Shown here in pieces: positions 5,883-63,668 of a stretch of DNA of 64,000 nucleotides. The position numbers and the translations under genes were made by a program. The DNA lies in assembly GCA_037379345.1 (NCBI GenBank), contig CM074521.1, positions 35,922,704 through 35,986,703 of the forward strand. The letters run 5' to 3'. The notes below the pieces were generated by a model. It was not told the origin of the DNA and did not search any database. It worked only from the letters and a program-made list of their open reading frames with translations. How positions within the stretch are numbered: the first letter of the stretch is position 1; each line of letters opens with the position of its first letter. The DNA comes from Perna viridis (taxonomy: Eukaryota).

Positions 5883-8089
5883 CTGAAAAAAAGAAAAATG
5901 AATCATTAAAATTTCCAATTATATAATTGCACATTCTCTGCCCATTATCAAGTCACATGACCTTTCCCATGGTACCTTGAATGCCACAGGCCACAGATTT
6001 CTTCTTCAAACTCCATTATTTCAATTTCACCTGAAGCAGCAAGTTATCTTTTACAGGATGCCACCTTTTTCAACATCATGTGACTTTTCCCATGATGCTT
6101 TGTCTAATTTTTGCCATAAGATAGAATGTTTTATTGTAACAGGAAGAAGGATAAGTTTTATGTGCCATAAATCAAGGGAATTCTGTCATTTTGAGCAATC
6201 TTCAAATTAATTCAGAAAAAGCCCAGAAAATTAATAAGCAAATAGCAAGACTACTGTTCATCAAGATAATAAACTGACGGAGAAAATGATCTATAATCAC
6301 ACTGTTGAAGGTAAAAATTCTGTCATTACCGAATGAAATAGCTAATATAGTCACCGATAATCACATTAATTAATACGAGTTTTGTCACTGGATGCTTTTA
6401 TTATAATTATAAGTTCTTTTCATGGTGTAATTATTGGTGAGATTAAGAAATCCTGCAATTGTGAGATATGCATTCTTCACATGCAATATTCCAGCAGAAA
6501 CCTGAAATTTATGACATTTTTCTTTGATGTATAATCAATTATTTTATTGCTAATTTATGACAAAGATAAAATGTGTTCAGAAGTGAGGGTAAAATTACAT
6601 CCATTAGGATAGAGTTCTAGATAGAACTGGAAGCAAAGATTACAAAATATTGGTTTGAATAGAAACCACATTCATTCTTTGCTGAGACACACTTGTCACA
6701 CTTGAAGTAAGCTATTATAAGCACACACATACACCATACCCAAGATTCAGCCATGAAGTACAATGTATTTCATTACTATGATAAGTATATGTAGTAGTGT
6801 TTTTTGTTAGAGTACCTTCAAGTAGACTCAGAAACTGTCTTATTTCCATATTAAGCATTTCACTACTTGAATGGTAAATACTAACGATGAACAGTCATTC
6901 CAGTTATTGTAGATACAGCATGGTAGAAAATTTGTGGTGAAGAATAAGATTTTACACGAAAACTGAAGGTGTAGAATAGTAGGTTCTTACATAAGTCTCT
7001 ATTGAAGAACCGAGCCCCTAATGAACAATAGGATTTCTAAGTTGTGAAATGTCGTCTTTCACTCAAGTGGAGTTCTAAGGAACATCGAAAGACAATAAAA
7101 TTCTCTCACAATTGGAAAAAATCTCAGTTTCTGTAAAAATAAGTGTCAGTAACTATTTCTTCTGTAAAACACTGTATTTTTCAGGTTTTGTATCTACACT
7201 GGTTTTGTCAGGGAGAATAGAGTCAAGGTTTTTCACAACTGTGGTTACATGGCAAAAATCAAAAACCACATGTGACATCACTGATGCCTTTATAAACATC
7301 TTCTATGTTGTACCGTTTGGCAGTTATCCGATTGGCTGATAATGCCATGTAACACATAGTCATCAGCAGTTGTCTTTATGGATTGTTTTACATGGAAAGT
7401 GACAAAACAGAAGATATTTTATAGACAGCAGATAAGACCAGAAACTATCGCATACCAGAACATGCATGTTTGCAGTTAAAAGCAAATGGTCTGAAAAAAA
7501 AAGAGCATATTGTCAAGTTTTAAGTGACTTATTTGACCTCATAAAAAGAACCAAAATAAAAGCAAAATAAAATGGTATTTCATCACAATCAACCATTAAT
7601 GTAATTAACTAAAAAAACAACCATTATCTTTTAACGATCAATTAAAAATAGATTTAACTGAACTTTAGGGGGATCCTTTATTGGACAATTTTTGTGAAAA
7701 AAATTCTCCAACAAAAGCCATCAAATTCCATAACAGTATTATCTGTTCATCATTGTCAATTTTCTTTATTAAAATCCAACTTTCAACAATAAAACATAGA
7801 CACAAATGATGTATAATTCAAATGACAAATTTCCATAGATACATCATGATCACTATCTTAACATGTTTTCGACAGAAAGCCACATTACATGGCTCCTATA
7901 TTATTATAATTGATTGAAATCGGTCGTTTGTATAGGTCTTTGAGTAGAATTGGTTTGAAAAAAAGTTCTTCTTGCATTTTATTAACAAATTTATCTGGAA
8001 AGAAAAATCAAATTTTCAACTTCTTAGTTGTTTTCTAAGTATAGGGTATAACAGACCAAGTCTTGATGAAGTAAGATAAAGAAGGATTT

Positions 8090-8544
8090 AGATTGTTTGT
8101 TTGTTTGTTTGTTGGGGTTTAACGTCCGAGCAGCAATATTTCAGCTATATTCAGACGATGAACATGAAATTGATGATAAAATGAACATGAAATGATGAAA
8201 TGGAAAAGGAATGGGACACAAGGACAATGGGGTAGACAAATTTTGATTGCCACTGGAAATAGGGAGAGGTGGGTAGGGTCGGGAAAATTAGCCTCCTGTG
8301 GCGGAGCCCTATGGTTCCTATTCCGGGAGAATACCATAGTAGGGTTCTTTAATGTGTGAGGAACGTGGTATCTTTCCCAACACGGTGCACCACTATGGTT
8401 TGCGGTCAGTTTTCCATATTATAGCCTGACAACCCCAGCATGTAACACGCCAGGGGTACCCTATTCAACCCTATTTAGTCGCCTTTTACAACAAACTTAG
8501 CGCTGCTGCAGGCCTATTCTTTTAACACCCAGACCTGCACGGGG
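8090..8544 (-). mobile_element. Apparently full-length non-autonomous retroposon (SINE/RTE-derived type), 455 bp
   Basis: 10-bp target-site duplication AGAAGGATTT (8080-8089 and 8545-8554). 3' tail ...ggacgttaaacccc(aaca)n on the minus strand. GC/CpG-richer than the flanks, with a structured 5' head. Confidence 0.85.
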
Positions 8545-9111
8545 AGAAGGATTTTGAAAAATGTTTTTCAGTCTTTCTACTTTCACTTTAACTTTTCCAA
8601 GACTTTTTCTACTTTCTTTCCATCTTTCAAAGCCATGTCCTTTTTATTGACCTTCGGGACACTTGCATGAAACTTAACATGTAAGTGAACCTAACATACA
8701 CATCAACTTTAGCTGACGTAAACAGCAGGAATGTCTGTATATAAAATACCAGTATAACCTTATTTAGTATAGTTTATCTAGAAGATCAAGTTTGTATTTA
8801 CACAGTCATATATTAAATTTATTCCAGATTGTAAATCTATCATGTTTTGAAGTTGCAGGTTTGTAGTAAAAGTGAATAAAAAGTAAGACATACTGTTTAA
8901 AACAAACACATTATTGCTGTATGGAGTATTTGTTCTAGTTTTAAACCGCTTTAAGACATAAATTTTGCAGAAAAAAATGGATCATTTTTTTATTATACGT
9001 AGCAAAGTGACTACAGTTGGTACATAAAAAGAGACTCAGAGAACACAAAAAAGAACTAAGAATTTTAAAAGTATCCACTGTACGTATGATTGAATTAAGA
9101 AGCAGAACATG

Positions 9112-9219
9112 AGGGAGCTAACATTTGATTGTATGGTGGGGGATCAAATTTTGTGTCCTGGATTTTTATTTCAAACTTGATCATTGATCCACACCATAAA
9201 AATCAAGTGGTTGCTCCTT
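9112..9219. mobile_element. Short MITE
   Basis: Imperfect terminal inverted repeats of about 30 bp: agggagctaacatttgattgtatggtg / caccataaaaatcaagtggttgctcct. Confidence 0.65.
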
Positions 9220-9672
9220 TATAATGCAAAGACAGGTAAAAATAAATAAACTATTACTCAGTTTATAAAGACAGGAAACTTTTCATATAAAATACACAAG
9301 AAAAATTGACTGCCCTTTGAAACATTTCCTTCAAACAGATGAAGTGGACAAACAACAGAATAGCTTTGGTTAAGAATATGCTGCTCCTTAAATCAACACA
9401 TCAAGAACAATGGAGTCTCTTCACCAAGCAATATCTACAGATAAAGATAACATAGTTAGGATGGAATGTATATCTCAATAATTTGTTGACTTTTCTATGT
9501 AATTTGTTTCAATATTTTCTGTTGATTAAAACAACTCTGGGTTTCACCTATTATCCACTAAAGATTTTAATAATAATTAATGTAAGAGATTCCTGAGGTT
9601 ATCTATGGTAAGACAATGTGCTAAACTGGTAGATTATCCCCTCTAAACAACTCATTTGGACAGAGACTCTGG

Positions 9673-9817
9673 GCAACCCTGGGAGTCAAAACATCTATTT
9701 CAGAGCTGATTGACTCAGAACCCTGGTGATAATTGTATCCTAAGCAACTCTGAGTCAAAACATCTATTTCAGAGTTGATTGACTCAGAACCTCCAAGACA
9801 TCTGTATCCAAAGCAAA
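9673..9817. repeat. 69-bp tandem duplication with internal inverted repeat
   Basis: gagtcaaaacatctatttcagag(c/t)tgattgactcagaacc at 9683 and 9752. Confidence 0.85.
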
Positions 9818-12800
9818 CCTTCTTAGCGCCTGAACATCCAATAGAAACAGAATAAAAGAAAACTTCACAGCTTCACAATAATCTGTATATGTGGATGAAA
9901 TCAGCATGAGAATGGACAACAGTCTGAAAATTCCAGAATACCGGTAACTTTATTGGTATCTATCATAGAGAGCCCCAACTTGAACAGCACTGAATCTGTT
10001 ATTAAATAAACACTTCCTGACTACTGAGGTGTAGAGTTTACTTTATTTAATGATAAAACAATTGTTCTGGAGTAATCATCTACTTCCACCTCTGCCAAGA
10101 GTCTGCCAGTACATCAAACAGAAGTAAGAATTCATGGCTGTGATGTATATAGACCTATGATAGATTTACATATACACCATATATAAATAAATCACTAGCA
10201 AAATAGCAGAAAAAGACTCTAGCTACTTTGATAACCTTGCTAGATATCAACCAGAATAACCAAAAGATCAGAATGAAACATGGCTCCATTCTAATACTTC
10301 TAGTATCCTAAAAACTTGACTTTTACATAATTTAATGTTAAAACATTTATACTTGTGTAATAATCCAATTTACCCACATCAGCATTTAGTATGTACTGTT
10401 CTGAGGTAACTCAAGGTAACAGATTACCACAGCTTATTCATTGACATATCTTACTGCTGCAATTGGAGATGGATTGAACTGCCTGTAACTGCTATTATAA
10501 CTAAAGAAAATGAAGAAACTAACAGCATAATAGAGTAAAACTTTCTGCTTTAGAATGAGAATTAGAAACAATTTTGACCTTGAATTACAGCCATACCATC
10601 CCTTACCAACATATGACTATACATTGGTCAAATGCTAAAAATCAGACCACATCTTGAAACACAAGATCTTTAATATGAAACTAATGAACTATAGGGTACC
10701 AGATCTTGGCTTGTAAACATAACAGCTCAGCCTCAGTTGATGAAACATACAATGTAGTTGCATAATTAAGGAATGGTGACATTGATTGTTAGTACAAGGT
10801 CATGTCTAGACAAAGAGGGGAACTTGACAACTCTCTTCATAATATCAGCAGGACATCTGTACTTACAAAATGTAATTAATGGAAAACAATAAGCATGAAA
10901 AACTCTTCCCTGGAACAAGACAAGTAATTTACACAGAGTGAACAACATTATTATATGGACCTAAATATTCAACATAATAAAAAAATAAAATAGAAAACAA
11001 GACACAAATATGTAGGAAGGAAACTTTAACAACAATATCCCTAAAGAAACATGAACAGGAAGAAACTACTGACTGATAAAACAGAAATAGGAAATAACTA
11101 TTTTTTTAATACAAAATTTCTATACAGTGTGAATTTGATAACAAGAAGTATGTATTAATTTTGGTGGCATAATGGTACTAAACAGCTCAGTACCAATACT
11201 TAAACTTAGAATGACATCACTATACATGATAGATATATAGCAATCTAGACAACATTGATTCATAAGTTCATATCAACAGTAAGAAACAATCTACCAAAGT
11301 AGCATATAACTTGGTGGAAGTATTTCTGAATAATTGTGTGACTGACAGACAGACAATATTACCGAAATACATTCCGTCCAAAGAGATGGGCAAATAAAAA
11401 TTAACCCAACGAAATCTAAGTACCCATGTTCTTATAACTAGAAAGTGAGTTAAAAACTAAAGCTGTAAGATAATTTAAAGAAACCCAAAACACTGCATAT
11501 AATACTGAAAGAAGCACCAGAAATAATATTAGAAGCAGACAGAGATCTCCTATACCATGAACAGTTGACACATACAGTGTAATTTATATCATGGTTGTCA
11601 ATAAGTTCATTTCTATTGTCTGGAGAAAGACAGAGCTTAACTGTCCACATGTTAGTTCCATGACAAACAAACGCTTGAATGAATAGGATATTTGCAGTCA
11701 TTACGGTCCTGTTACCATGTTATCACAGAATTACTGACGATTCTTATTAAACAAGTGAAATGTAATAGTAAGGACAAAATGTTCTTAGCTAGCAGTTTTA
11801 TTTAGACTCTATTGTTAGGTTTATTAGCAGTTTGGTATATTGAGTATGATTTGCCTCTATAAATTAATCTAATTCTTGAATGAAACATATTTACAAACAA
11901 CAGGTAGGAAGGACTACATCTATGTCTGAAGGTGCAAGTGTAAAACTATAGGCTTGTACAGACAAGATTACTTTAAGGTAGCTTACAGTCTTATGGTTTA
12001 CAAAAATCTTTACAAATGCAAAATTTTTAAATTACAGTGTCAATATTTGATTTTCTAATAAACTGGGGCTTCCAATAAGCTCTTTAATAAACAATGCATG
12101 CCAAGTGCTTCTTGTGTAAACAGTGAACTTGCTTAGATTTGAAAGAACTGTGCAATTACATATCTATTGAGAGATTTGTTAATGTCCAGTGAAGTGCAGA
12201 AGAAATTGATTTTTGGTGTTTTTTATGGCAGGCTGGGAGTCTTTGCGTCTTTTGATCTGTTTGTCAATAGACAGAATATAGCAAATGTGAGATGAAATAA
12301 GACTCAAAAGCACGTAAACTGAATATCAAATAATTCACTTCATTAGCGATGAGCTCATGAAATCGTCAATATAATAGAGATGTATAGCTTTTCAAAATAC
12401 AATTTCATCAAACCTGATTACTCTTGAACAGCATGGCTTATGTTTACCTTTAAATTAATAAATGGCAAGCTTTGAAAAGGAAACACCATGTTTCAGAATA
12501 TAAATATTGAGCCTTGAATAGAAATGTATGGTAATGACCATTGCCTTACTGTTTTATAGCATCTGTTTGTATAAAAACACAATTATATCAATGAATATCT
12601 TTAAGTATGCATGGACTAATGGGGCTGATATCTGTATTTGTTTTTTGCCTCAATATGGGAAGATGAACCTAAAAGGCAACTAAAAAGGACATGTCAGACT
12701 TACTCTATTGATTGGCTACTGGAATATTTTTTTGTTTTTACATAATGGTGAGAAATAAGACAAAAATATCCATGATACAAAAACATTGTTTAACAACCAT

Positions 12801-15549
12801 TAAGATGGCATAGATAAGGCATTTTACCATCATGAAACAAAACTTGCACAGAAAAGTATTCAGATCAAATGTCTATTAAAAGAAAGAGAGAGTATTGATT
12901 GGTCCAGTTCAGGCATAACCCTGTGCTTGGGTTGGGCTGCACTTATAAATGACAAGAAGCCTGAAAATCAGGTCAATTGCAAAGCTTTCTACATTCCAAC
13001 ACTGGTGTGGACCTTAATTGTCATTATACACCCAAAGCAGACATTCTTTCTTTACACAGAGGCAACACTGGTGTGACATCATTACTAGGTCCTTCATTCT
13101 GATAAGTAAATCTCTTCAACTTCAAAGTCAGACTTAAGTGTAACTTTAGCAAAGGGTGACTGATTATAGACCTTAGTAATGGTGATAGTCCTGGTATTCT
13201 GGCAATAAGTAAATACCCACTATCAAGAGACCATTGACTTAAAATTCTTTGACATCTTAGAGTCTAGAAGTCATTAATACCCTCCTACAACTCCAAATAT
13301 ACCTTTAAAATTAAACTGAAGATAATATGTAAATCCCTTAGACTGAATGGACTTTTACTGACAAATTGGAGTTTTATCATTTTGATGAAACTATAAAGAG
13401 AAATGCATGATTTCGCCCAAAAAACATTTAAAACTATCCTTTCTTGGGCCTCAACAATTGTTTCTCAATAAATTAGAAGTTGTAACATAAGTAGAAACAG
13501 GATGCAGAAGTTCCTTAGTGCGATCATAACATGGACAACTTCCTGTGTTAAAACAGGCACTAATTTTAATCACTGAGATCAAATCATATTTCTGATGTTA
13601 TGATATCAATATGGCAGGACTGCTGCCATATCTGTTGTATCAATAGTGACTGAATTCATTCATTATCCCATTTTTTATTCACCTGTTCAACTCAACAAAA
13701 TATCTTTTATTGAGTTTTTTTCTGGGTCAGATTTTTTTCCTGCTGTGGAGAGAAGAATCTTCATGATCATCGAACAGATATCAAACATTTATAGTAGATG
13801 TCATGTATGTGCACTTCATCAGAAATTAATCTTTTTATTATCCAATAAATTTGTACACTAAAAAGTAGGTTTTAGATCTGTTTTATATCATCTTCAGATT
13901 ATACACAGGAGAGATTTAATTTTCTTTACATGTTACACTGCCCTCTCCTCCAAAAATATGTTTTGTCTCAATTTGCTATCAAGATCCAATGAGCAGACTG
14001 GGACATACATATAAAACATATATCAGACAAATGGGTAGATGTTACTTTCAAAGAAACACAGATAAAATTAACAATGATAACCCTCCATTAAATGAAGTAC
14101 CATATAAAATAAATTAGCCATTCAAACAATAAAACCTCACATGAGAACTAGATACTGGCTGAAACATATCAATTCCATTATAGAGTCGATGGGGCCATCA
14201 CATCATCAGTAATAATAGACTTTTTACATCTACATATTACTCCATTATACAGTCATGGGGAGGTTGTTTTAATCTGTAATAACATACATTGATGATAGGC
14301 ATCCTGTATTATAATGGATCAGTATCCCAACAGAGACATCATATATTAGGACATTATAGATATATAATGATCAATATGGTGCTCTACATTTACAGAACAA
14401 TATTTTTTTTATTGATGGCTAAAAGTGACAAGACATTTTGTGTTATCTTCAATTCCATAAATCCAATAGCTTTATAAATAAAGTAAATATAAACAACTGA
14501 ATTCTCTCAGATTTAAAGAAAACTAGCATTCACACTATTCAGTATTGACTATCAATTTGAACTGATATCAATGCATTAGGTTTTAAAAGTACTTAAATTA
14601 AGAGTTCTGGTTTTAAAGCTCCTTAAATAAAAGAAGAAAAAGAAGACCTTGAAGTGAATATTATTTCTCTTTGGAAAGCAACTAGTGTCATTTAGCACTA
14701 TAAGTGATGTACTTTTCTCCTTGTCTTTTATTACAATTACTAAACAAAACACATTTACTATGACAGTTGCTATGGAAGTTCCGTCACATGCAAGTAGAAA
14801 TGGATTTTCCAAACAAACGGAAAGTAATGTGACATTTCTAAGGATTTATTTGACAAGAGAAATGGAAAATACTGGTTGCAGAAGATACAACACTCATCTT
14901 GTGAGCAGAACATGATGATCAAGCATTGACTAATGGCAGAAAGATACAACACTCATCAAGCATTGAGTAACGACAATCCAAGGCTTCAGTGAATCAACAG
15001 TTAGGAACATCTACAGTAATTTTACAGCCAATGTCAAAAAGCTTAATAAAGAAACAAGATATTACATAATTCTTAAACTGTTCAATTATTTCATTCTTTT
15101 GAATCATAATTATTTCTGTAACTACCATCGAATGTAATCTATAATTGGATAGATAGTCCTTGAGGATTCAAATAGAGAGATGGTAGTTAGAAATGTATGT
15201 GTTTCTATAATGGCCTCTTGTGATTAATTGCTTCATTATAAAAAGTATGCAGGAGCATGAGAATTAATCAGACAGAAGTTTCATATGATTGTGTTGCCAC
15301 AGTGCATTCTGCTGGTAGATCTTTTGCATGTATGATGAAGGCAGCGTCCAGTAATTAATGTACTTTTCCTCACCATCCAAACAACACAATTTTGTTTTCT
15401 TTGGGTTACCATCATAAAAGGACAATTGAAAGCAAAGAAACTTATTAACATTAATTTAATTTTGCTTTTGCCTAAAACAATGCATGATTCTCCATTCCAA
15501 AGTTCAAAGGTGTATAACTCCAACAAAAATCAATGGGTCATAAATTCCT

Positions 15550-15695
15550 AAAATATGCACATACTTGCATATAAAGTCTTAGCGACCTACAAAGTTCCAT
15601 GAAGATGGATGACTTAGCTTCTCAAGAATTGTGATGGACAGACAGACAGAAGGACAGGGCAAATATGTATTCCCACCAAAATGGAGGGAGACATT
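15550..15695 (+). mobile_element. Helentron/HINE-like 3' remnant
   Basis: acctacaaagttccatgaag motif, (GACA)n microsatellite and a terminal degenerate C-run/G-run hairpin. Similar decayed remnants lie at about 11240-11400 and 61740-61910. Confidence 0.45.
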
Positions 15696-15804
15696 ACTGT
15701 TATTAGCCATGTACTGACTAACAGCACCATATAAAAAAATACATTTTTTGATTTGTAACATTGGCCCCTTTCTAAAAGAATGTCAACAAATTTAAGATAC
15801 TTAC

Positions 15805-22419: not shown

Positions 22420-22703
22420 TAGTTTTCCTTTCCGCGTTTGTCTACCCCCAACTTGACTTTTTATGAGCAACTCGGTGGGTGTTTCTAGAAAAGCAGAGGA
22501 TGCTTACCCTACCGGTGCACCTGGGCCATGCTCCCAGTTTTTAGTGGAGTCTGAGTTGCTCATTTGCTTTTGTTATTTTGCATGTATGATTTTAGTTACT
22601 TTATGTTCTTTGTTGCATATGTCTAATTTCCATGTCTGGTCTTTGTCCCTGGATTACATTCTTTTGATTACTGCTATAACCTTGGTTCCCTTGATTACTC
22701 TTA
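22420..22703 (+). mobile_element. Interspersed repeat fragment (GATGCTTACCCTACC-GGTGCACCTGG family), copy 1
   Basis: Aligns with an inverted second copy near 60 kb and with the unit of the 54.2-kb array. Resembles an abundant bivalve repeat from memory; class not determined and ends approximate. Confidence 0.7.
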
Positions 22704-58012: not shown

Positions 58013-59934
58013 TGTTAAAGCTACTGTGAAGAGTAGTTGCTGAAAAAACTGATAGAAAAAATTGTTACAGCTGGAAACACAAACAAGGATAACACAGTTT
58101 ACCCCCACCATCCTTCAGAGATGGGATACAGATATCAAGGATCTTCTGAATCTCAGTAACATACTTTCAAGGATCACATTATTATATTAAAACAAAATAG
58201 TTCAGGACAGTTGAGCCTCTGAATTCTTTATAGGATTTCTTATAAACAATGTATACCAGCAACAATGTATCACATTTTTCTTTAAAGTTAAAAGGTAACT
58301 ATCCATAATTGATCTAAACATGTTATAACATGAAGCTGTATGCATTGTTATGTTGGGTATTTTGGAAGTTGAAATCTGACAGCAATTCAAGTTGCTAACT
58401 ACGTCTATATAAAGCAATGAACCAAAACTGAAATCAATTCATTCATTGAGAGTCAATCTATTGGGATGAAATTTGGACAAAAAGATGGTTCCACTATACC
58501 ATTCGACATTGCAAAGCAAGTGTCTCACTGCTCCTGATCATACAACAATCAATAACCTTGTTTTTTAATGGTCTTGAAAATGATAACCTTCATTTAATTA
58601 AAGTGCTATATTAAATTCTAATAATTAAAAAGGGTATATAGTATATCATGTGGGTCAAATGTTCTCATATATCTATGTATTCAAATTTCATTGATCCTTT
58701 AGAGATATATTTTATGAATTTGATGAGCTCTTTAAACTAGAACTATTTTCATTTACAGCAATATTCAGTATAATAAATCTTGTATTGACATTTCTTTTTG
58801 CTTTAAATGAAGATTCATTTCAATCTTTTTCAATACCCTTTACCACAATATAATTCATAAGGCACTGAATTCTTGAATCTTTACAACAGAGATTATTCTA
58901 AATTTAAATTCAACACCCTACATTAAACCAAAAGTACACATCGTTAAAAATCATTTGACCATTGAGTTGTAGATGTTCAATAAAGGTACAAAGATAAAGA
59001 GTTGTAATTCGTCCTGACCAATTTCAATCTGGTTCCTTGTTTAAATTATCAGTAGAATGAATAAGAGTAAATATTGACTCATATACTTAGTGAGCCTATA
59101 TGGTTGTAGTTTATAGTTGTATAGTAAACGGACAAACATTTACATTCTCCTGCTATGGTAAATAAAACTTTCACTGGTGATAGGAAATATAACTCTCTAT
59201 AGAATTCAGATAGGAAGAATTAATAAATAAAGTTAGATAGCGTCACACCCATTGCCAAAAATGGCCTTGTGAATTGTCAAGACACAATATAATAGGCATC
59301 TGATAACAGGGTTTTACATTTTTTAGATAAAATTTCACACAGTGTGGTTTTAGAACAACGATGTATGTCTTAAATTTTCATAATTAAACTCAAACCTGCA
59401 CTTAAACAACAATAAACTGTACTTTATACATCACTTATTAGAATTACAAATTAAGTTTTGGATAGTAAGATAAGCTGAGATTACTCCCTTTTTTTCAAGG
59501 CTATAGATATTGGAACCAGGGACACCCATGCTCACATACTTACATCTACAGAGATAAAGTGTAAAAACTGGCATTTTAAAATTTTTATCAGCATTAAACA
59601 TCAGTCACTTTGTTACAAATTCAGTCAAAAATTCAACAAAAATCAATAAAGGTTTTCTTATTGATCGTTGAAATACAAAAAAAGATTGCATTCTTAAAAA
59701 CATGTGAAGTAACTTAGGGAAGAAATAGAAGCTGTCTATCTGAGTTAATTTATCATATTTGTATCTCCATGTTACTTCTCCATGTTTCTCCTCAATAACA
59801 TTATCAATTATACGACTTAGTTATCTTATAAATACTTCCTACTACTGATTGTCATTTAAGGGAAAATATCAAAATACAAAACTTACAGAAATAATACAAG
59901 TTTTGGTATGCTGTAAACATGCTTCAAGGTAAAA

Positions 59935-60121
59935 GAATGTTCAAGAGAACCATGAATGTAGCGAAAATGAAAAGAATATAATCGAGGGACAAAGACCGGA
60001 CAGGGAAATTAGACACACATTATAAACACCACAAAATAACCAAAATAATATGTATAAAGCAAACTCTGATTGCACTAAAAACTGTAAGCATGGACCAGGT
60101 GCACTGGTAGGGTAAGCATCC
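59935..60121 (-). mobile_element. Interspersed repeat fragment, copy 2 (more diverged)
   Basis: Minus strand ggatgcttaccctaccagtgcacctggtccatgcttacagtttttagtg matches 22498-22547, and similarity continues through ggtctttgtccct. Confidence 0.7.
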
Positions 60122-63100
60122 AATCCTTTCATAGCAGCATAGGAACCAAATACTATGAAGTTGGGAAATCCAAAATGAAGTAGTAAAAAAAATATCAAAA
60201 CAGAATGTAAAATCCAGAGAAGTTCTTCAATGTGCAAGGAATGAAGCCTCAGTGTTCTAGAGCTCTTGAATTAGACAGGGAAAGTTACATTTGAAAGATC
60301 TGTTGTAGTGAAGTAATTTTCATGTATATTTTACAGTATAAAGCAGATTATAATTAGAATTGTTGAGCACTGGTTAGTATACAAATTAATTAAATCAAAG
60401 TACTCATGTACTGAATCAAACTAAAGCCACAATCATTGAAATAAACCATGCCCTTAGATACATGTCACTCTCAAATAGCTACATTCCTTGATTGATAAGC
60501 TATACAGCTCAAGTCCTACAAGTTATCACTTAGACACCTGTGTGTCATGTAAAAGCGCTTAGTTTCTGGGCACCTAATTCAAGAGTCATGCCCATACATT
60601 AACATAAACACCAAAGTCTTAGAAATAAACAGTTATTAGTGAGGTTTGTATTGTATTGTTGTTAATACACACCAAATTTAGTTCGCAGTAAAAGTGGTTT
60701 ATTGGGTTTGTTAATTGGCGTAAATAGCACAGAATTAAATATGACAAATTAAAAATACCCATTAAGTGGACCCAACTATCTGTATTTGAATTTTAATGGG
60801 TCATGCCAGTGGACTATTTTCCTGCGGTAGTGTAAGATAATTTCAGATGCTAACAGGCTTTACAAATCTAAAGGCTCTGGTGACTGCTATATCTATTCTG
60901 ATCTTCAATCTAAATTGATAAAAATCAATAGTTTGTCAGTAACTCTCATGGAAGACAATGTGAAAACCATCTGGTACTCTTATGTACTTCCAGAACAACA
61001 TTTCTGTTGTAGGATTAGTATGTGGAGAAAAAGTGGTATGGTCAACTTTGGTTTGTCAGACAGTGGGAGAACATCATGAATATATTTTAATATGCATGAA
61101 TTTGAAGATCAAAATTGTGATATATTTCGTTGTACAAAGCAAAAACATGCAACATGTACAGTAAAAAACATATCATTGTACCATGTTTGGTCATTAAAAG
61201 CAACCCACCAGAATTCAGTTTTCAGTGTTGATGCCCCTGCAAGGAAGATCACATGACTAATATGATGCCTATCCTTATGGCAATAATTCTCATGTTTCCT
61301 TACTTTCACAAAGTAAGACCGAATACTTGTAATTAGAAATATTTGAGAATACTATAAGAAAGGAGTGGGTGGGATAAGAACTATTAATGGGTCTCAAAAG
61401 ACACACACTGTAAAGATACATATGTTTTTGTTGATTAAATCTCACCTTATTGATGAAACACGACTGTCATGAAAGTCAAACAGTATCTTATATTTTGCCC
61501 AAAGGACCTGCTATCATTTTCCAGATTTAAAAAAAATAGTTCATTTGAATGTAGGTCTATTAAATTCTAAACAAACATATTGACTTTTCTTGGTGAAAAG
61601 GAATGTTTAGGTGGAAATCTCAAGAAAATTATTAGGAGACTTTTTATTGCCACTTAATAAATTGCAGGAATAAGGTTCACTGCACACTTACACAATATGA
61701 TACATTGTCATGCTAGGTATACTCAAACTCATACTGCAAGTTGATATCTGACATTAATATAAAGGCACATACCAAATTTCAAATCAATCCATCAATTAGG
61801 GTTTAATATGAATATAACGACATTTATAGTGACATAATAAAAGATGGATGCAGTTATGGACTGATAAACAAGGTGACTGCAATATACCATCCACTCCTAG
61901 AGTATAGTTATATCATGGAAGTTTAATGAAGGAATGAAAAACATTGGAGCATTGACATTTTAGAAGCAATGCTCAAAGAGACAGATTAAAGTAAGTTTTA
62001 AAATCCCAAGTTTGTTAGACCGAACCTTAAAACTAACAACAGTTTAATCAGACAGGGAATCATATTGCTTCTAAGAATGTACTAAAGGTTAAAGACATTG
62101 TAGTTCTCTCTAGAGGTTAACCTTATATGGCTAAGGATCAAAACATCACAGTATAACATAGACTGGGGACGGCGTCTGATTTAATGAGGGAACAGGATAC
62201 ACGGTATTGAAGATGTAATAATGCTAGCATAGACAACATATTTTCTGTTTTATTCTATAGAGACGAGGACAGCCATTGATGTAGGAGACTAACATCAATG
62301 GTGAATCTTAGAACTTCAACGTCTTTAGGCTAAATAGAAATAAAAACTGATGTGTGTGCATGCGTGCGTGCGTGTTGAAAAAGAAGGGAGATAATTGTTA
62401 CTACTTGTACATAAAAAATACATTTAAAGGCAATGTCACCATGCCAATTTCCAATTTAAAAGCAAAATCTTCTACAAGAGCAAATGTATTGATCGAAGGT
62501 TAAAGGCTGAAACAGATTAAAACAACATGAACAATAATTCCTAGAGGCATATACAACAACATCTTTCCAAAAACACAATGTCATATTTCACTTAGAAATA
62601 TGGATAATTTTTCATCCTCAGCAAGTCATCATAGCTGTAAACCACCGATTGTAAACCAGTGATGACTTCTGTTTATTGATTATATCACACTAAAGAGGAC
62701 ATCTATCTCCATGGTACAATCTATCCCACAGCCATCGAAAAAGTTTACAAAATGCATTTCTTTTGTTACAAAGGAGAAAAGTGAGAATTCTTGTTGTTAA
62801 AAGATAAATCTGAATTCTTCACACTGCACTATGGAATCTATTCAAAACATTCATTTAGATCATGCTTTGAAAAGTGCAGAGAATGACTGAACAAGAAAAC
62901 TCAACATCACTGTCAACCTCTATTAGGCAAGAACAAGAGATGCAATGATTTTAATAGAATTTTATAAGTTTCTAGATTTATCATGATGTGACAAAATTTT
63001 CATAGAAACCAACTAAAATTAGCTTGAAGGCCTAAATCATATGTGAATTTAGAAGTCACTTGAGTAAACAGGGGGTTGTTGTGTGACTAGGGGCAAAAAA

Positions 63101-63171
63101 AGTCACACGTGACCCTACCTGTATGCAATTTCAAACCAATCTATGCATCATAAAAATCTAGCAGTAAGAAC

Positions 63172-63438
63172 TACTACAGCCTATAAAATCCTTGATTAAA
63201 GGCCTCCAGTGAAGAGATACTACAGCCTATAAAATCCTTGATTAAAGGCCTCCAGTGAAGAGATACTACAGCCTATAAAATCCTTGATTAAAGGCCTCCA
63301 GTGAAGAGATACTACAGCCTATAAAATCCTTGATTAAAGGCCTCCAGTGAAGAGATACTACAGCCTATCAAATCCATGATTAAAGGCCTCCTGTGAAGAG
63401 ATACTACAGCCTATATGATCCTAAATCACTAGCCTCCA
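63172..63438. repeat. 46-bp tandem repeat, 5 units plus a diverged interrupted sixth
   Basis: tactacagcctataaaatccttgattaaaggcctccagtgaagaga; units start at 63172, 63218, 63264, 63310, 63356 and 63402. Confidence 0.95.
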
Positions 63439-63668
63439 CTCTACGCGTTGGTGTATTCCCAAATAGAGTGGGGAAACACTCTCGGATCAATGTGGGGTCT
63501 GAGAGTAAGCTAGCCCCTAGTAGGACATACTCTGAGTTCTTCAGTCACATATCCCAAAGGCTGGGCTTTGCTACCTCCAACTACTAACAGACATCTTCTA
63601 ACACAATTCCTGCAAGGGGCCGTCATGCGAGATCCGCAAGGATAGTCAAGACGGTATAAACCACCAAT
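63439..63668 (+). mobile_element. 230-bp structured retro-insertion within the last unit of a tandem array
   Basis: Flanked by direct repeats CTAGCCTCCA (63429-63438 and 63669-63678). Removing it restores a diverged 46-bp unit. Ends in a SINE-like tail gacggtataaaccaccaat. Confidence 0.7.

Follow-up and report, generated by a model that had tools for sequence, protein, structure and literature searches.

How a retroposon without an upstream promoter obtains a precise 5' end has been solved only for non-LTR elements headed by ribozymes, and not for other such elements or for SINEs transcribed by other means than Pol III. This question is raised by a SINE copy in a window of 64,000 nucleotides of Perna viridis DNA (the whole stretch analysed here). 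The copy begins with an LP ('LINE promoter') head, whose function was left as a question in 2016 (Matetovici 2016, PMC4758252). We report here that the RNA of this head is predicted to fold into a conserved, pseudoknotted structure at the exact 5' end of the retroposon, and we weigh what such a structure may do there.

A SINE copy with a 76-nt head in an intron of an RRM gene

The SINE copy is ~455 nt long and its first 76 nt constitute the head under study (8544-8469, minus strand; Table 1). A sequence-only reading of this DNA had placed the head at this position, with its first C adjoining a 10-nt target-site duplication (TSD) and with the orientation of the host pre-mRNA, and all three points were reproduced. 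The element lies in sense orientation within a spliced intron of 9,922 nt in a minus-strand gene, as determined from a stranded RNA run. The exons flanking the intron encode an RRM when translated, and we take the gene to be shep/RBMS. The window copy diverges by 4.0% from the family majority, compared with a median of 4.7% for near-full-length copies (n = 114). It lacks the G found before CCCC in most copies, carries U for C at 8531, 8495 and 8490 in the head and has lost sequence that damages the 3' strand of helix P2 (Table 1). This particular copy of the head is probably weakened or dead.

Table 1. Positions in the window of the SINE copy, the parts of its head and the host intron
Feature	Position	Strand	Remarks
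Non-tRNA SINE copy	8090..8544	minus	LP head + body with Nin-DC-like word + LINE-type tail + (ACAA)n
5' target-site duplication	8545..8554	minus	10 nt
3' target-site duplication	8080..8089	minus	10 nt
S1 5' strand (CCCG), pseudoknot stem	8540..8543	minus
L1, single-U loop	8539..8539	minus	U in 18/21 families with good S2
S2 5' strand, 7 bp, covarying	8532..8538	minus
S1 3' strand	8528..8531	minus	UGGG in window copy, CGGG in most copies
Loop L3, length variable	8515..8527	minus	3' end is the conserved AGAAUA (8520-8515)
S2 3' strand	8508..8514	minus
P2 helix 5' strand (AGCGCUA)	8498..8504	minus
Conserved core: GCNU / P3 hairpin of 4-5 bp / loop / UAA	8475..8496	minus
P2 helix 3' strand	8467..8473	minus	damaged by ~66-nt deletion after 8471
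LINE-type tail + (ACAA)n repeat	8093..8157	minus
Host intron of RRM gene	5883..15804	minus	56 junction reads; SINE sense to gene

A single SINE family, unlikely to be transcribed by Pol III

The 18-nt core of the head had 8,241 exact matches genome-wide and its reversed control had none. With the first 145 nt as query, 2,850 candidates were obtained in the 723-Mb genome, 40 of which were scored. Reading from the start of contig C1 yielded 98 distinct copies with the core, and every one of them belonged to a single family. A TSD was called in 73 of 101 tail-bearing copies (median 13 nt), and the commonest start in this survey was GCCCC (29), followed by CCCC (7). GC preceded CCCG in 111 of 164 copies, so most copies start G-CCCCG; the first base was a G in 126/164 copies, lay outside the TSD and was less conserved than the stem. 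Copies starting with TA or CA formed no clear subfamily (p 0.12, n = 5).

The earlier statement that tRNA-like boxes are lacking held up: tRNA genes were absent from 6/6 SINE loci scanned, and among the 164 heads an A-box pattern matched 3 and a B-box pattern matched 0. T-runs of at least 5 were present inside 109 of 121 copies. tRNA-derived Pol III SINEs are defined by A and B boxes without an internal T-run terminator, features that this family does not show. Given its internal T-runs and the lack of B boxes, transcription of the SINE by Pol III appears unlikely. The family agrees with the LP-SINEs of Matetovici 2016 in its homologous 5' ~70 nt, its variable TSDs, its 3' microsatellite tail of short tandem repeats and the lack of a tRNA head, and differs from them in length (~455 nt versus ~255 nt).

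No second head-bearing family or head-bearing LINE was seen in this genome among the 38 of 59 variant matches inspected, nor was a partner LINE among 30 of 55 tail-variant loci. An RNase H-bearing LINE 3' fragment (L367:8645-9658, minus strand), duplicated 6.8 kb away and presumably I/Nimb-like, has a tail loosely similar to that of the SINE; it is a neighbour and not a proven partner. SINE copies are often nested, adjoining or mutually inverted (L013, L023, L029, L237, L310). At G000:C15:5527143-5572574 (L308), ~15 tandem units of 2-3.5 kb each all contain a head-only SINE fragment.

The head RNA is predicted to form a conserved pseudoknot

Relatives of the head were collected with an exact 22-nt pattern, which gave 39 metagenome loci, and an 18-nt pattern, which gave 9 viral and 13 prokaryote-genome loci. 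The 66 hits, including 1 copy from our own genome, fell into 42 families at < 75% flank identity. Since all carriers were found via the core pattern, the invariance of the core is partly built in. The pseudoknot test covered 28 of the 42 families, 13 being left out for want of AGAAU and 1 for a short flank, and a few automatic parses that took the wrong partner were counted unchanged.

The predicted fold is an H-type pseudoknot consisting of a 4-bp stem S1, a loop L1 of one U, a 7-bp stem S2 and a loop L3 that ends in AGAAUA, and 3' of the pseudoknot a variable helix, P2, closes the invariant 18-nt core. In S2, the 7 nt after AGAAUN pair with a strand upstream. This helix was perfect (7/7) in 16 of 28 families, compared with 4.1 expected (maximum 10 in 300 permutations), a count that ignores relatedness and carries no p-value; U preceded S2 in 18 of the 21 families having at least 6/7 S2 pairs. 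In S1, the 4 nt preceding this U are paired with the 4 nt that follow the S2 strand, with G-C/C-G swaps at two positions. At this fixed register 75% of the cells were paired, versus 27-54% in slid registers and 57% after permutation (1/10,000; relatedness ignored). Because the register of P2 shifts by 0-1 nt between families, a flexible-register test was used for this helix, and its mean length was 3.5 bp versus 2.6 (0/3000 permutations, 41 families; relatedness ignored); at fixed register the signal was weak (0.57 versus 0.49; 60/10,000). In 11 hand-picked short-loop sequences 93.9% of the positions were paired, with 31 double changes (0/500 shuffles) and slid versions at 29-61% (relatedness ignored). 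A model built from those 11 sequences, none of them from our own genome, recovered the window copy with 54.9 bits (E 5.8e-11) as its sole hit in the window. Five relaxed viral scans gave no variant of P3 and no new carrier, so P3 is backed by invariance and not by covariation; the scallop rows in the supplement of Matetovici 2016 vary at the start of P3. Support for the structure thus comes from covariation and not from folding energy: the MFE z-score of the window head was an unremarkable -1.0 or -2.3 depending on its ends, and the z-scores of 8 heads (-0.4 to -2.4) were uninformative.

The covariation check proposed by the sequence-only reading gave good covariation across 28 divergent families, for a fold other than the one drawn there. 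Two of the four helices drawn, the 9-bp helix and the GUUG/CGAC hairpin, occur in the MFE fold. The loop pseudoknot GGUGUU/AGCGCU was indistinguishable from chance, with a longest helix of 4.25 versus 4.21 permuted (28 families; 448/1000 as high), and its last U was replaced by C in 26 of 98 own copies; AGCGCUA pairs instead with the strand 3' of the core to form P2. The closing CCC/GGG helix was lost as well: GGG stood within 8 nt after CUAA in 0/98 own copies, and the GGG of the window copy arose through its ~66-nt deletion.

An Rfam search, likewise proposed, left the motif without a match at E ≤ 10 (window), E ≤ 5 (18 loci) or the gathering score (8 loci), in keeping with the view that the head fits no known ribozyme class. 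At these thresholds there was no core or covariance match to hammerhead, twister, twister-sister, pistol, hatchet or hairpin ribozymes.

Several retrotransposon types share the head

The core motif was present at the head of two RTE-type elements encoding a single-ORF endonuclease-RT (P0002, P0003), in which the ORF starts ~60 nt 3' of the core. This agrees with the sequence-only reading, which links such a motif to RTE-related 5' ends. The motif also heads an element inserted in a TAA repeat (P0001, L054), whose 1,144-aa RT lacks an AP endonuclease, is nearest to R2 among solved structures and carries C-terminal CCHC and restriction-like nuclease motifs. We take P0001 to be an R4/Dong-type element.

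The same ~70-nt 5' sequence has been described as the LP head, with a promoter function proposed, on mollusc LP-SINEs, pectinoid MESC SINEs, Nimb-17_LMi, I-3_DR and RTE-9_CPB (Matetovici 2016, PMC4758252). The scallop 'Nimb-17 homology' rows carry the C-run, AGAAU and GGCGACUAA, a match judged by eye against the rows of supplementary Fig. S2. The RLE-type carrier P0001 is absent from the carriers listed in the accessible part of that paper, which presents the head as a presumed promoter, gives no structure for it and contains neither the pseudoknot nor the viral sites. The earlier suggestion of an uncharacterised catalytic or structured RNA, which a match to a described motif was to overturn, thus stands for the conserved structure and falls for the sequence, which is that of the LP head. 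In short, the sequence and the SINE type were already known and the structure is uncatalogued. The full-text literature, in a searchable body from which most subscription journals, figures and bioRxiv supplements are missing and to which Repbase and Dfam do not belong, held no description of the fold, its viral occurrences or its function.

Of the 13 hits in prokaryote genomes, the ones bearing the full motif resemble pieces of eukaryotic SINEs or LINEs in MAGs and the others chance matches; no RT was found in the one prokaryote genome examined. The eukaryotic-looking SINE/LINE heads in bacterial MAG contigs (L081-L090) are probably host contamination or chimeric contigs, and annotated phages gave chance hits only. 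Tandem heads were observed as near-identical 74-nt units in a 1133-nt record (L066) and as two diverged, structured heads 76 nt apart in L037.

The 5' end of the element follows the pseudoknot

In 38 of the 47 GC-start copies for which a TSD was called, and in 4/4 TA/CA-start copies, exactly 2 nt lay between the end of the TSD and S1. Relative to the L1 U, the element began 6 nt upstream in our own family; the same holds for 8 of the 9 copies from a second family, whose loop is 13 nt longer (U-to-AGAAU spacing of 32 nt versus 19 nt), and the C-run of a scallop family starts 5 nt upstream of this U. Because the start stays 5-6 nt from the L1 U across differing U-to-AGAAU spacings, the 5' boundary of the element follows the knot and not the conserved blocks.

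One ordinary stranded RNA-seq run, 19% of which was read, covered both strands, with sense ~2x antisense, and contained 314 reads that extend past the head into varied upstream flanks. No pile-up of 5' ends was seen at the head in this portion of the run, a weak negative as the library was not of the 5'-end type. The extra first G may be an encoded base or a copy of a cap. A G outside the TSD resembles a copied mRNA cap, as described in the available text of PMC9341517; this G is not fixed in other families and is not the first base in 6 viral motifs.

The head might be an internal Pol II promoter and nothing more, as proposed by Matetovici 2016, acting as DNA with incidental helices. Its position at the 5' end, the possibly cap-derived G and the Pol III-incompatible T-runs would suit such a role. 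The start-to-conserved-block spacing is variable, however, three helices contain compensatory changes and the same invariant blocks occur in RNA viruses without a DNA stage (below), and we regard a role confined to promoting as very improbable. A promoter role may exist in addition to the RNA role.

Viral carriers point to selection on the RNA

The full motif was found in 7 of the 9 viral loci. Six of these loci are small viral contigs representing 5 lineages; there the motif is on the coding strand, AGAAU follows the last stop at a distance of 25-119 nt, and 27-119 nt separate the core from the end of the record. Four of these five lineages had RdRp or capsid Pfam hits and comprised a virus with a toti-like RdRp, two RdRP_3 viruses, one of which has a nodavirus-type capsid, and a capsid segment with Peptidase_A21 (represented by two contigs, of which one was scanned). 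The fifth had one ORF without a Pfam hit, together with a second, diverged tandem copy of the motif cut by the contig end. The seventh carrier (L138:2451-2528, 79 bits) lay between two ORFs of the same strand in a DNA virus of 212 kb that has an NAD-dependent ligase. Both stems and the core are retained in viruses that lack a DNA stage, so the motif is selected as RNA.

These positions bear on the possibility that the head represents a new class of self-cleaving ribozyme, which would cut 1-2 nt before S1 and free the element RNA from read-through transcripts, in the way that HDV-like and twister ribozymes serve other non-LTR elements. The head occupies the place of the ribozymes at RTE, R4, R2 and other 5' ends (PMC5786205, PMC8501958), is shared across unrelated LINE types, and combines a sharp start abutting the TSD with an invariant core and a pseudoknot. 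Linear RNA viruses do contain weak ribozymes; those that the accessible text of PMC13725137 describes are located in 5' UTRs or ahead of ORFs, or form tandem pairs in totiviruses. Our motif lies 3' of the last viral ORF, where a cut would lose the 3' end of the genome. In addition, the first base is a G in retroposons and not in the 6 viral motifs, the 314 loose-end reads span the 5' boundary, L037 and L135 retain diverged tandem heads, and the hammerhead core word occurred in 0/42 families, with no Rfam ribozyme hit. A new ribozyme class is therefore an unlikely reading of the head. Catalysis in general is possible but not favoured, because the motif follows the last stop codon in records of linear RNA viruses and cleavage would remove the genome 3' end.

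The HDV-like and twister ribozymes at non-LTR 5' ends (R2, R4, RTE, Perere-3) resemble the head in abutting the TSD, in their spread across clades and in being pseudoknotted. The head lacks the nested double pseudoknot of HDV-like ribozymes, in which the P1 3' strand and P1.1 come between P3 and the C-containing J4/2; the 18 nt that separate its P2 5' strand from CUAA are too few to hold them. The HDV-like L3 word occurs in 5/42 families. The twister architecture is likewise absent, and unlike these two classes the head also lies in viral 3' UTRs.

A candidate roadblock to 5'-to-3' exonucleases

Our leading explanation, held tentatively and at somewhat short of even confidence, is that the head is an xrRNA-like roadblock to 5'-to-3' exonucleases. 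It is favoured because one job must fit both the start of a retroposon and the start of a viral 3' UTR and harm neither. In retroposons, an exonuclease digesting longer host read-through transcripts would halt at the knot, or the knot would shield a transcript that had lost its cap; the resulting RNA would start 1-2 nt before S1 and be copied by the LINE reverse transcriptase. The same arrest in viruses would yield a short 3' non-coding RNA. Docking of the invariant hairpin domain on the pseudoknot would brace the latter.

Several of the above results agree with this roadblock: covariation in S1, S2 and P2 indicates selection as RNA, the 5' boundary tracks the knot whatever the spacing, the T-runs in the copies argue against Pol III, and head RNA reads through from upstream flanks, as a harmless block would permit. 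xrRNAs typically lie in 3' UTRs, are often tandem and need a pseudoknot (PMC8374639, PMC10520033), traits that recur in the viral carriers. The likeness to viral xrRNAs (flaviviral classes 1/2, dianthoviral-luteoviral, coremin) extends to compactness, sense-strand position at the start of the 3' UTR in the six contigs, occasional tandem arrangement and occurrence in unrelated RNA viruses, both single-stranded and double-stranded. The class is defined by a 15-16-nt ring around the 5' end, and the head shares its compact, pseudoknot-containing fold as judged by covariation. Its sequence and topology differ from those of viral xrRNAs, and it also lies at the 5' ends of cellular retroposons; the coremin word occurred in 0/42 families and there was no Rfam hit, so the consensus of the known families is not matched.

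Other results speak against a roadblock. Plain frameshift-type pseudoknots do not stall Xrn1, according to the accessible text of PMC10321173, and the core domain would therefore have to supply the brace. A cap-like G outside the TSD would mean that transcription starts there, and no 5'-end pile-up was present in the 19% of one run that was read, which was not a 5'-end library. The pseudoknot test covers 28 of the 42 families. An 18-nt core without any variation, in carriers that were themselves found by the core, would better fit a site of catalysis or binding.

This invariance of a single-stranded core suits a different role, in which the knot would offer a platform, similar to a 3'-CITE, to which translation factors, the ribosome or another host protein bind. 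It would serve cap-independent translation in viral 3' UTRs, promote ORF translation at LINE 5' ends and bring SINE RNA to the ribosomes that make the LINE protein; Pol II would start at the first C, the G being copied from the cap. In tombus/noda-like and toti-like records the motif follows closely on the last stop codon, a place where translation enhancers are also located. The ORF start ~60 nt after the core in RTE-type carriers and the G outside the TSD in the 38 of 47 GC-start copies fit this role too. The BTE word, however, occurred in only 1/42 families, no Rfam cis-element matched, the G is not fixed in other families and factor binding gives no account of a boundary that follows the knot across spacings. 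We consider a binding platform possible but doubtful.

The defined ~75-nt fold, common to several retrotransposon types and RNA-virus tails, makes the LP question testable in vitro. Blocking of Xrn1 would make the head an xrRNA with a new fold, employed by mobile elements of cells, and would add a new way of forming 5' ends; self-cleavage would make it a ribozyme of a new class. In both cases this element enters host transcripts through thousands of copies. A broader proposal sees in the LP head a self-processing RNA of a new class, a ribozyme with no counterpart in Rfam, which generates its own 5' end, perhaps with the extra G left on it, and which has been exchanged as a module between RTE, Nimb and RLE-type elements, SINEs and unrelated RNA viruses; this seems to us unlikely.

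Other observations in the window

The core at 8475-8492 seems to resemble the conserved small-subunit rRNA sequence at the decoding-site end of helix 44, a resemblance that may be due to chance. Apart from this core, the window also has tandem arrays with 34-nt and 46-nt units, at 56034-~57900 and 63120-63484. A further interspersed repeat is present as 2 inverted copies at 22480-22702 and 59933-60139, which are 76-82% alike.
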